IMG/VR virus record: IMGVR_UViG_2534682161_000019 | Reading direction: 5' to 3' (one strand) | From: a virus | Taxonomy: Duplodnaviria > Heunggongvirae > Uroviricota > Caudoviricetes | DNA: 44,580 nucleotides | Shown: positions 19,261 to 19,414 of the stretch, in pieces | Layout: the number at the start of each line of letters is the position of its first letter | Position numbering within the stretch: position 1 is the first letter of the stretch | Program-made: the position numbers and the translations under genes | The notes under the pieces: model-generated | The model's database searches: none | The model's input: the letters and a program-made list of their open reading frames with translations, nothing else | What the model was told of the DNA's origin: nothing

Positions 19261-19336
19261 GTCGACTTAGCTCAGCAGGCAGAGCAACTGACTTGTAATC
19301 AGTAGGTCACCAGTTCGATTCCGGTAGTCGGCACCA
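19261..19336 (+). tRNA. tRNA-Thr (anticodon UGU), phage-encoded
   Basis: 76 nt ending CCA; acceptor stem GTCGACT/AGTCGGC; anticodon stem ACTGA/TCAGT with loop CTTGTAA; T-loop GTTCGATTC. Confidence 0.7.
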
Positions 19337-19339
19337 TAT

Positions 19340-19414
19340 GCGGGTATCGTATAATGGCTATTACCTCAGCCTTCCAAGCTGATGATGCGGGTTCGATTCC
19401 CGCTACCCGCTCCA
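19340..19414 (+). tRNA. tRNA-Gly (anticodon UCC), glyT-like, phage-encoded
   Basis: 75 nt ending CCA; acceptor stem GCGGGTA/TACCCGC; anticodon loop CTTCCAA; near-identical to E. coli glyT as I recall it. Confidence 0.75.

Follow-up and report, generated by a model that had tools for sequence, protein, structure and literature searches.

Why does a lambdoid prophage carry a tRNA-Thr(UGU) gene and a tRNA-Gly(UCC) gene between its antiterminator gene Q and its lysis genes? The question is raised by positions 19261-19414 of the IMG/VR virus record IMGVR_UViG_2534682161_000019 (Caudoviricetes), a stretch of 44,580 nucleotides (nt), hereafter the window, which is a lambdoid prophage near-identical to one in Escherichia coli N96. 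Our analysis places slightly better than even confidence in the explanation that we are dealing with a tRNA operon cassette of the type known from the Shiga toxin 2 (Stx2) phage 933W, and that it raises the supply of two low-abundance tRNAs for prophage codons. Its payload would be host-derived thrU and glyT isoacceptors that decode ACA (and ACG) and GGA (and GGG), codons that host core genes use infrequently. Lambdoid tRNA cassettes are a known class, of which the feature is an ordinary example; the copy in the window shows signs of local decay and is without the anticodon-arm changes of defence-resistant tRNAs.

Scanning the whole window (44.6 kb) with ARAGORN returned two tRNA genes only, both on the plus strand. 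tRNA-Thr(UGU) occupies 19261-19336 (ARAGORN anticodon tgt) and tRNA-Gly(UCC) occupies 19340-19414 (tcc), and the two are joined by a 3-nt TAT spacer (19337-19339, plus strand). Rfam RF00005 recognises them with 65.0 and 65.6 bits, respectively, against a gathering score of 29 (E about 1e-12), and both genes encode their 3' CCA. An earlier note, made from the letters of this DNA alone, had described two adjacent, canonically folding tRNA genes with encoded CCA, 3 nt apart; ARAGORN and Rfam agree with this description to the exact coordinates, formal folding by ARAGORN returned the same anticodons, UGU and UCC, and the scores lie far over the threshold.

Both genes are near-copies of host genes, namely thrU and glyT, which are members of the host thrU-tyrU-glyT-thrT operon and are each single-copy in E. 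coli. The window tRNA-Thr is identical to thrU at 73 of 76 positions, the changes being C2U, which creates a U2·G71 pair, and U16C and U20C in the D loop; its anticodon arm (positions 27-43) is that of the host. The tRNA-Gly matches glyT at 73 of 75 positions, and the sole difference is a compensatory exchange of the C6:G67 pair for U6:A67. The E. coli glycyl-tRNA synthetase (GlyRS) identity set, consisting of U73, G1-C72, C2-G71, G3-C70, C35 and C36, is found complete in 19340-19414.

The Thr/Gly payload is common and already annotated in RefSeq and GenBank. We found the Thr-3 nt-Gly junction in at least 120 IMG/VR contigs and in ten stretches of GTDB representative genomes, from E. coli, Shigella flexneri, E. 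ruysiae, Citrobacter braakii and Enterobacter hormaechei; one more GTDB match, on a 423-bp contig labelled Corallococcus, is probably contamination. GenBank phages with the junction are SerU-LTIIb, vB_EcoS-683R6, phi467, 689R5, 606R7, PhiR47_1 and JLK-2012. Of 5,426 complete E. coli genomes, 5,421 contained matches to the pair, at 6,580 places in all, which leaves approximately 1,150 extra copies after subtracting one host thrU/glyT locus per genome. Among the junctions listed, the arrays are Thr-Gly (57), Met(CAU)-Lys(UUU)-Thr-Gly (36), Met-Arg(UCU)-Thr-Gly (18) and rarer forms, and that of JLK-2012 is Asn-Thr-Gly. The spacer is 3 nt in all sampled copies but three, in which it is 4 nt. tRNA-Thr is identical to host thrU in 98 of 192 sampled copies and tRNA-Gly is identical to glyT in 77 of 192, the U6:A67 form being present in about 103 of 192. 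The earlier note had regarded Thr/Gly as a set different from the usual ileZ/argN/argO; it does differ from the 933W set but is not unusual, since it recurs widely and often stands behind ileZ-like Met(CAU) and Arg(UCU) or Lys(UUU). A literature search for an earlier account of lambdoid Thr-Gly tRNAs returned nothing direct. As a side observation, SerU-LTIIb (1122-1272) and two IMG/VR Met-Lys-Lys-Gly loci contain thrU-type tRNA bodies with the anticodon UCU (annotated as Arg) or UUU (Lys), which look like anticodon shifts by a single change at G35 within the cassette family.

As a host baseline for codon use we took 40 K-12 core genes (14,638 codons; all values are per 1000 codons). ACA rises from 5.2 in the host core to 18.6 in the early genes of the prophage and 11.8 in its late genes, and GGA from 7.2 to 13.8 and 10.5, which corresponds to an enrichment of 2.3-3.6-fold for ACA (within-family Fisher p of 1e-16 early and 1e-3 late) and 1.4-1.9-fold for GGA (2e-9 early and 0.01 late). 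ACG (host core 12.6, early 9.0, late 24.3) and GGG (9.6, 11.8 and 19.5), both approximately doubled in late prophage genes, are readable by tRNA-Thr(UGU) and tRNA-Gly(UCC), respectively. When all 61 codons are ranked by enrichment ratio over all prophage genes, ACA is 4th, GGG 9th, GGA 12th and ACG 14th, and in absolute excess ACA is 2nd of 61. Moreover, the additional tRNAs of larger arrays, namely Met/Ile(CAU), Arg(UCU) and Lys(UUU), each read A-ending codons. Codon-usage compensation for late or moron genes, as put forward in the earlier note, thus receives moderate support in that ACA and GGA are enriched relative to the host, also in the late genes to which the proposed comparison was directed, but the enrichment is stronger in early genes, contrary to the emphasis on late ones. 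Supply and demand is therefore consistent with the codon data, but alone it does not explain the choice of Thr and Gly tRNAs. Separately, the window contains a lambda-type -1 slippery site for gpGT (G GGA AAG in frame, 32014-32020, 16 nt before the gpG stop codon), in which GGA is read by tRNA-Gly(UCC) and AAG by tRNA-Lys(UUU), the latter being carried in related arrays; any effect of extra tRNA on the G:GT ratio is purely speculative.

The position of the pair also corresponds to the 933W type, as the tRNAs lie on the late strand between Q and the moron and lysis genes. The order is RusA, Q, a split CPBP-like open reading frame (ORF), a small ORF, a truncated methylase gene and the two tRNAs, followed by 342 nt without a credible ORF, an ORF of 160-180 amino acids (aa) matching phrog_5091, and then TerB, DUF3927, holin, lysozyme, Rz, terminase and structural genes; the lysis genes begin at about 21.2 kb, with lysozyme from 21411. 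Q (16616-16990, plus strand) matches Pfam PF06530 (Phage_antitermQ; E 2.8e-51) and is 99% identical to the annotated N96 Q. The earlier placement of the pair downstream of Q is correct in the broad sense, as is the statement that lambdoid phages carry tRNA genes at this position, but the pair is not adjacent to Q: 2.27 kb separate Q from tRNA-Thr and hold the split CPBP-like ORF, the small ORF and the methylase remnant. The CPBP-like gene is broken into two overlapping ORFs (17138-17961), while the N96 version is intact with 272 aa. The DNA-methylase gene (18597-19146, plus strand) is truncated or frameshifted, matches Pfam N6_N4_Mtase over its first half only, and abuts the cassette with its 3' end; its N96 copy is marked as a pseudogene in RefSeq, and a methylase gene lies directly 5' of the tRNA array in 25 related loci. 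Both broken genes point to local decay around the cassette.

On the 3' side, the ORF in the moron slot (19757-20299) has its likely start at GTG 19817, preceded by the ribosome-binding site AAGAGGA; for this ORF (hyp180) phrog_5091, itself of unknown function, was the only family matched, and Pfam returned nothing. Several observations concern the rest of the prophage. Relative to the window, the N96 prophage differs by an extra IS66 and in part of the early region, where three consecutive window ORFs of 163, 170 and 153 aa (12864-14325), which have no Pfam or PHROG match, are replaced in N96 by a helix-turn-helix and ImmA/IrrE pair, indicating a variable early-region island. The window also contains STnc100 at 273-465 (111.7 bits), near the integrase end, DicF at 6006-6057 on the minus strand, beside dicB, and, at 14447-14596, sok, which is the antitoxin of a hok/sok locus.

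How would the cassette be expressed? At related loci a conserved sigma-70 promoter precedes the arrays, and Thr-led arrays have a type of their own, for example TTGCGA-16-TATTAT. At least five unrelated genes are found upstream of these arrays, among them several putative Q types (including the small Q family of the window; among the upstream Q-like clusters Pfam confirmation applies to the window Q only), the methylase and others, and in Met-led arrays the promoter lies after a terminator. This arrangement argues that the promoter belongs to the cassette and not to pR'. In the window, a putative weakened tRNA promoter at 19166-19193 (plus strand; -35-like ATGAAT at 19166-19171, 16-nt spacer, -10 TATTAT at 19188-19193) aligns with the TTGCGA/TTGCTC-16-TATTAT of related Thr-led cassettes; the corresponding site of 933W carries the annotation pT, and the promoter scan also lists a 9/12 site at 19132-19159 of the window. 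The putative promoter is followed by a 5' leader (19194-19260, plus strand) with a degenerate form of a conserved hairpin (CUUCGAGAG at 19201-19209 and CCGAGGAAG at 19248-19256), which at related loci reads GGUUCYGAGGGG...CYCCYUGARGAACC-AAU directly 5' of tRNA-Thr. Judged from these signals, autonomous expression of the window cassette is uncertain, and run-through of the late transcript is the safer inference.

We therefore envisage that the cassette would be read by run-through of Q-modified late transcription and probably also from a weak sigma-70 promoter of its own. The tRNAs would be freed through RNase P and RNase E-type processing, and the supply of tRNA-Thr(UGU) and tRNA-Gly(UCC) would rise for the codons over-represented in prophage genes. 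The structured trailer and its terminators, described below, would close the unit and, in the lysogen, stop transcription from reaching the moron and lysis genes, and a 30-bp hairpin in the trailer probably does something more at the RNA level, be it in processing, stability or regulation.

Several points weigh against a cassette that supplies tRNAs for prophage codons. First, the identity set of E. coli threonyl-tRNA synthetase (ThrRS) is G1-C72, C2-G71, G35 and U36, and the window tRNA-Thr keeps G1-C72, G35 and U36 but has U·G in place of C-G at pair 2-71, which we take to be a ThrRS identity element. Since U2·G71 replaces the C2-G71 of thrU at this pair, charging of the window tRNA-Thr may be impaired, and the U2 allele, present in 3 of 131 sampled copies, is rare. 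Second, the most enriched codons are AGG, AGA, CGG and ATA, for none of which the prophage encodes a tRNA; GGA shows only a small enrichment in late genes (1.4-1.5-fold; p = 0.01 for the structural plus lysis set), and the host codon baseline is limited to its 40 genes. Third, the -35 element of the window is poor (three of six positions), although the -10 stays in register, the promoter region is without the upstream part found at other loci, the leader hairpin is degenerate, and the genes flanking the cassette are decaying.

The strongest competitor, to which we assign a real though minor chance, is counter-defence, in which the cassette replaces or tops up tRNAs destroyed by anti-phage effectors such as P2 Old, PARIS AriB or FaRel2-type toxSAS. 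The lethal action of P2 Old, an excluder of lambda, is cleavage of host tRNA-Thr(UGU) at the paired CNG motifs 28-30 and 40-42, and phage tRNA-Thr(UGU), including that of the lambdoid phage 21, rescues from Old (PMC12445682). PARIS AriB cuts the tRNAs for Lys(UUU), for Thr(UGU) and for Asn(GUU) between positions 40 and 41 (PMC12409363), and the toxSAS FaRel2 picks tRNA-Gly and tRNA-Thr via the acceptor pairs 1-72, 2-71, 4-69 and 5-68 (PMC11559606). Exactly these species are found in lambdoid arrays (Lys-Thr-Gly and, in JLK-2012, Asn-Thr-Gly), and such combinations make it plausible that the cassette family serves in counter-defence. Resistance to Old needs both a change in the CNG motif and a shorter stem, and over-expressed host ThrU protects little or not at all (PMC12445682). 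In 7 of 192 Thr copies (about 4%) and in JLK-2012, where the array is Asn-Thr-Gly (2915-3148), we found G42U/C together with U43C, giving an anticodon arm ending in ...AUCAUC or ...AUCACC, with an altered CNG motif and a stem cut to 3 bp; these copies would be predicted to be of the resistance type, as they combine the two features tied to Old resistance. An IMG/VR scan for a guessed phage-21-like pattern, C28U/G42A, returned unrelated metagenomic tRNAs only. For this sample, the census shows how often lambdoid phages carry a resistance-type as opposed to a host-like form of tRNA-Thr(UGU), which was recently shown to be the tRNA by way of which P2 Old shuts out lambda-like phages and one that PARIS also attacks.

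The window copy itself belongs to the host-like majority, in which positions 27-43 of tRNA-Thr are identical to the host (180 of 192 sampled copies, about 94%). Both CNG motifs are kept, the anticodon stem is not shortened, the AriB site U36AAUC|A41 is unchanged and positions 39-41 are free of substitutions. Because the host anticodon arm is retained, the window tRNA-Thr is predicted to be sensitive to both Old and AriB, and on the published over-expression result an extra host-like copy would offer little or no protection. Other features of the pair are more favourable to counter-defence: the window tRNA-Gly(UCC) reads C28-A-G30 / C40-U-G42 with A37 and would fit the Old motif, and U2·G71 of tRNA-Thr touches pair 2-71, a FaRel2-type determinant. 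Against the latter, few copies carry the U2 allele, FaRel2 originates from a Firmicute, and the literature consulted documents no E. coli toxSAS of this specificity.

Somewhat less probable again is that the cassette is, in this prophage, a decaying passenger, that is, a relic no longer under selection that survives only because the tRNA genes are short and of recent origin, or because recombination with thrU and glyT homogenises them. It would account for the truncated methylase gene and the CPBP-like ORF, split here and intact in N96, for the weak -35, the missing upstream promoter region and the degenerate leader hairpin, and for U2·G71 at a synthetase identity position; in addition, among unique Thr alleles 20 stem changes break pairs and 9 keep them, suggesting relaxed constraint in some copies. 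However, both cloverleaves are intact with high covariance-model scores, the stem change in tRNA-Gly is compensatory and widespread, the structural late genes of the window look intact, and the trailer is fully kept and is 99-100% identical in seven other genomes.

Having considered the tRNAs, we turn to the DNA behind them, as the trailer is the only element of the cassette that looks undescribed. It occupies 19415-19718, between the last tRNA and an intrinsic terminator, which is the location expected of a 3' external transcribed spacer (3'ETS). The 300 nt after tRNA-Gly have a folding energy of -110.8 kcal/mol compared with -75.8 ± 5.2 kcal/mol for shuffled sequences (z = -6.8). Domain 1 (19435-19539, plus strand) consists of a closing helix of CAGCACUG (19436-19443) with CAGUGCUG (19525-19532), variable hairpins inside and a U tract (U6) at 19534-19539. 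The closing helix is kept in 18-20 of 20 variants, with some covariation at flanking pairs (RNAalifold), and a terminator scan marked a terminator-like site at 19507-19527; with its U tract, the domain looks like a terminator. Domain 2 (19537-19625, plus strand) is a long conserved hairpin of approximately 27-31 bp that is G·U-rich, with a stem-loop at its apex and a conserved 3' bulge, UGGCAGG. When 24 distinct variants were compared, 98% of the cells paired on the plus strand and 79% on the minus strand, and slid controls gave 28-59%. The excess of pairing on the plus strand argues that the hairpin acts as RNA on the strand of the tRNAs, and since 124 of the cells are G·U pairs, which form on the plus strand only, we rejected a DNA-level palindrome.

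The tail of the trailer (19626-19718, plus strand) ends in a strong intrinsic terminator, ACCGCC-ACACUU-GGCGG-U8, at 19694-19718, and the segment ACCUGGRAAUACAUCYUUAACCGCC...GGCGGUUUUUUU is conserved in type-A relatives. A second terminator-like hairpin, GGCUCGCUACGGCGGCC-U5, follows at 19732-19758 (plus strand), so that both lie after the last tRNA and before the moron gene, and the two would insulate the downstream moron and lysis genes. The trailer region is common to 70 of 133 Thr-Gly loci at 70-78% identity, the tRNAs there being 97-100% identical. A scan seeded with the hairpin returned 118 instances, of which 114 had enough upstream DNA; 112 of these 114 have a tRNA array on the 5' side with the last tRNA ending 127-144 nt upstream, and in 110 the array ends in Thr-Gly. 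In type-B relatives, what follows the hairpin is instead an STnc100-like stretch, which scores 22.9 bits, below threshold. In one type-B cassette, that of vB_EcoS-683R6, the interval between tRNA-Gly and the holin gene measures about 780 nt (4163-4940) and holds the hairpin and the STnc100-like sequence, its only annotated ORFs being two hypotheticals on the opposite strand.

Attempts to assign the trailer to something known gave negative results. An Rfam search at gathering and permissive thresholds returned no family, only chance hairpin (microRNA) matches; STnc100 had no match in 19100-19800 even at E up to 10; RefSeq contains no annotation in the trailer region; and a phage-database search with the window trailer found two other phages only. 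We rejected identity with PasA, PasC or PasD, small RNAs (sRNAs) of E2348/69, as BLAST at word size 7 with the sequences at their published coordinates found nothing in the trailer; PasA and PasC had no BLAST match in the window, and PasD2 gave chance-level matches outside the trailer that weakly touch the STnc100 copy at 273-465. A coding function was likewise rejected: the trailer is not coding, because 1-nt and 4-nt indels in homologues break every small ORF, including those of 37 aa on the plus and 35 aa on the minus strand. About half of all Thr-Gly cassettes, including that of the window, carry this strand-specific conserved RNA structure, which is described in no database. The hairpin could serve as an RNase III-type element for processing or stability, or could belong to a 3'ETS-derived sRNA.

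Could the trailer be the real payload? In this scenario a regulatory or processed RNA would be made from the 3' external spacer, comparable to 3'ETS-leuZ or STnc100/PasD, and the main contribution of the tRNAs would be a strong promoter and signals for processing. The fixed linkage of hairpin and array speaks for it, as does structure conserved on one strand while the sequence drifted to about 75% identity, the U8 terminator end preceded by a conserved single-stranded stretch, and the STnc100-like sequence after the hairpin in type-B relatives. Furthermore, the Q-to-lysis region of prophages is a known hot-spot for Hfq-bound sRNAs (PMC4104026; bioRxiv 10.64898/2026.05.13.724894). We nevertheless consider it distinctly improbable: approximately half of the Thr-Gly pairs are without the hairpin, which shows that the tRNAs persist without it, and the trailer has no homology to PasA, PasC or any Rfam family. 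A broader proposal, which we put forward tentatively and would bet against, has two parts that would have to hold together. The trailer at 19435-19718, especially the hairpin with its UGGCAGG bulge, would represent a new class of prophage non-coding RNA that is produced from the 3' spacer of a phage tRNA operon and has its own function, as an RNase III-processed stabiliser or insulator or as an sRNA or sponge; and together with tRNA-Thr(UGU), tRNA-Gly(UCC) and, in relatives, the Lys(UUU) or Asn tRNA it would form a lambdoid module against tRNA-targeting immunity (P2 Old, PARIS). If functional, the trailer would add an RNA element to a region that is a known nursery of prophage sRNAs.

The last alternative, an attachment (att) site relic of an ancestral element, as suggested in the earlier note, or a hot-spot of tRNA-targeted integration, can be dismissed as very improbable: tRNA genes are common integration targets in general, but here both genes are complete from position 1 to CCA, the cassette lies mid-prophage, about 17 kb from the integrase (1570-2589, minus strand), ARAGORN found no partial tRNA duplicate elsewhere in the window, and the same pair occurs in many unrelated lambdoid backbones as a unit from promoter to terminator, with its own leader.

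Finally, we compared the cassette with known systems. The host thrU-tyrU-glyT-thrT-tufB operon resembles it in the mature tRNA sequences, which are 96-97% identical in the window, but the window pair is without tyrU and the 116-nt spacer and is joined by 3 nt. Capture of the host operon together with its flanks was rejected, because flanks, promoter, leader and trailer are without similarity to thrU-tyrU-glyT. The tRNA cluster of T4 likewise contains Gly and Thr tRNAs that match the window pair at about 84%, presumably Gly(UCC) and Thr(UGU) beside other readers of A-ending codons, but T4 is a virulent phage with another gene order and processing context. The nuclease-resistant phage tRNA-Thr(UGU) genes (tRNA-Thr21 of phage 21 and the T5/T4 type; PMC12445682, PMC12409363) provide the same isoacceptor, in the case of phage 21 also in a lambdoid phage, and related lambdoid arrays carry Lys(UUU) or Asn, which are other nuclease targets; the window copy differs in keeping the host anticodon arm. 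With 3'ETS-leuZ the trailer shares the property of a structured, terminator-ended RNA from a tRNA operon spacer, and with STnc100/PasD and PasA/PasC that of a structured, terminator-ended RNA in the Q-to-lysis region of lambdoid prophages, the window's own STnc100 copy being located near the integrase end instead. These RNAs have no counterpart of the 30-bp hairpin and no detectable sequence or covariance-model similarity to the window trailer.

The closest parallel is 933W (NC_000924), which is annotated with Q, pR', qut, two terminators, pT, ileZ-argN-argO, a terminator and stx2AB. Its array sits in the same slot, preceded by Q, pR' and the tR' terminators and followed by the moron and lysis genes, and just 5' of pT it retains a relic of the same methylase C-terminus (17 of 28 aa identical to window 18991-19146). 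The terminator after its array, between argO and stx2A, resembles the window hairpin at 19732-19758, and the phrog_5091 ORF sits directly behind that hairpin, where 933W has stx2AB. The 933W pT, a "putative tRNA promoter" (TTGCAG-17-TATTAT-CCTGCGCCC), is the promoter of Met-led arrays ending in Thr-Gly, whereas that of the window is of the weaker, Thr-led type; in addition, 933W has only a short annotated terminator between argO and stx2A. The payloads differ as well, being Ile(CAU), Arg and Arg in 933W and Thr(UGU) and Gly(UCC) in the window, and related arrays combine both sets.

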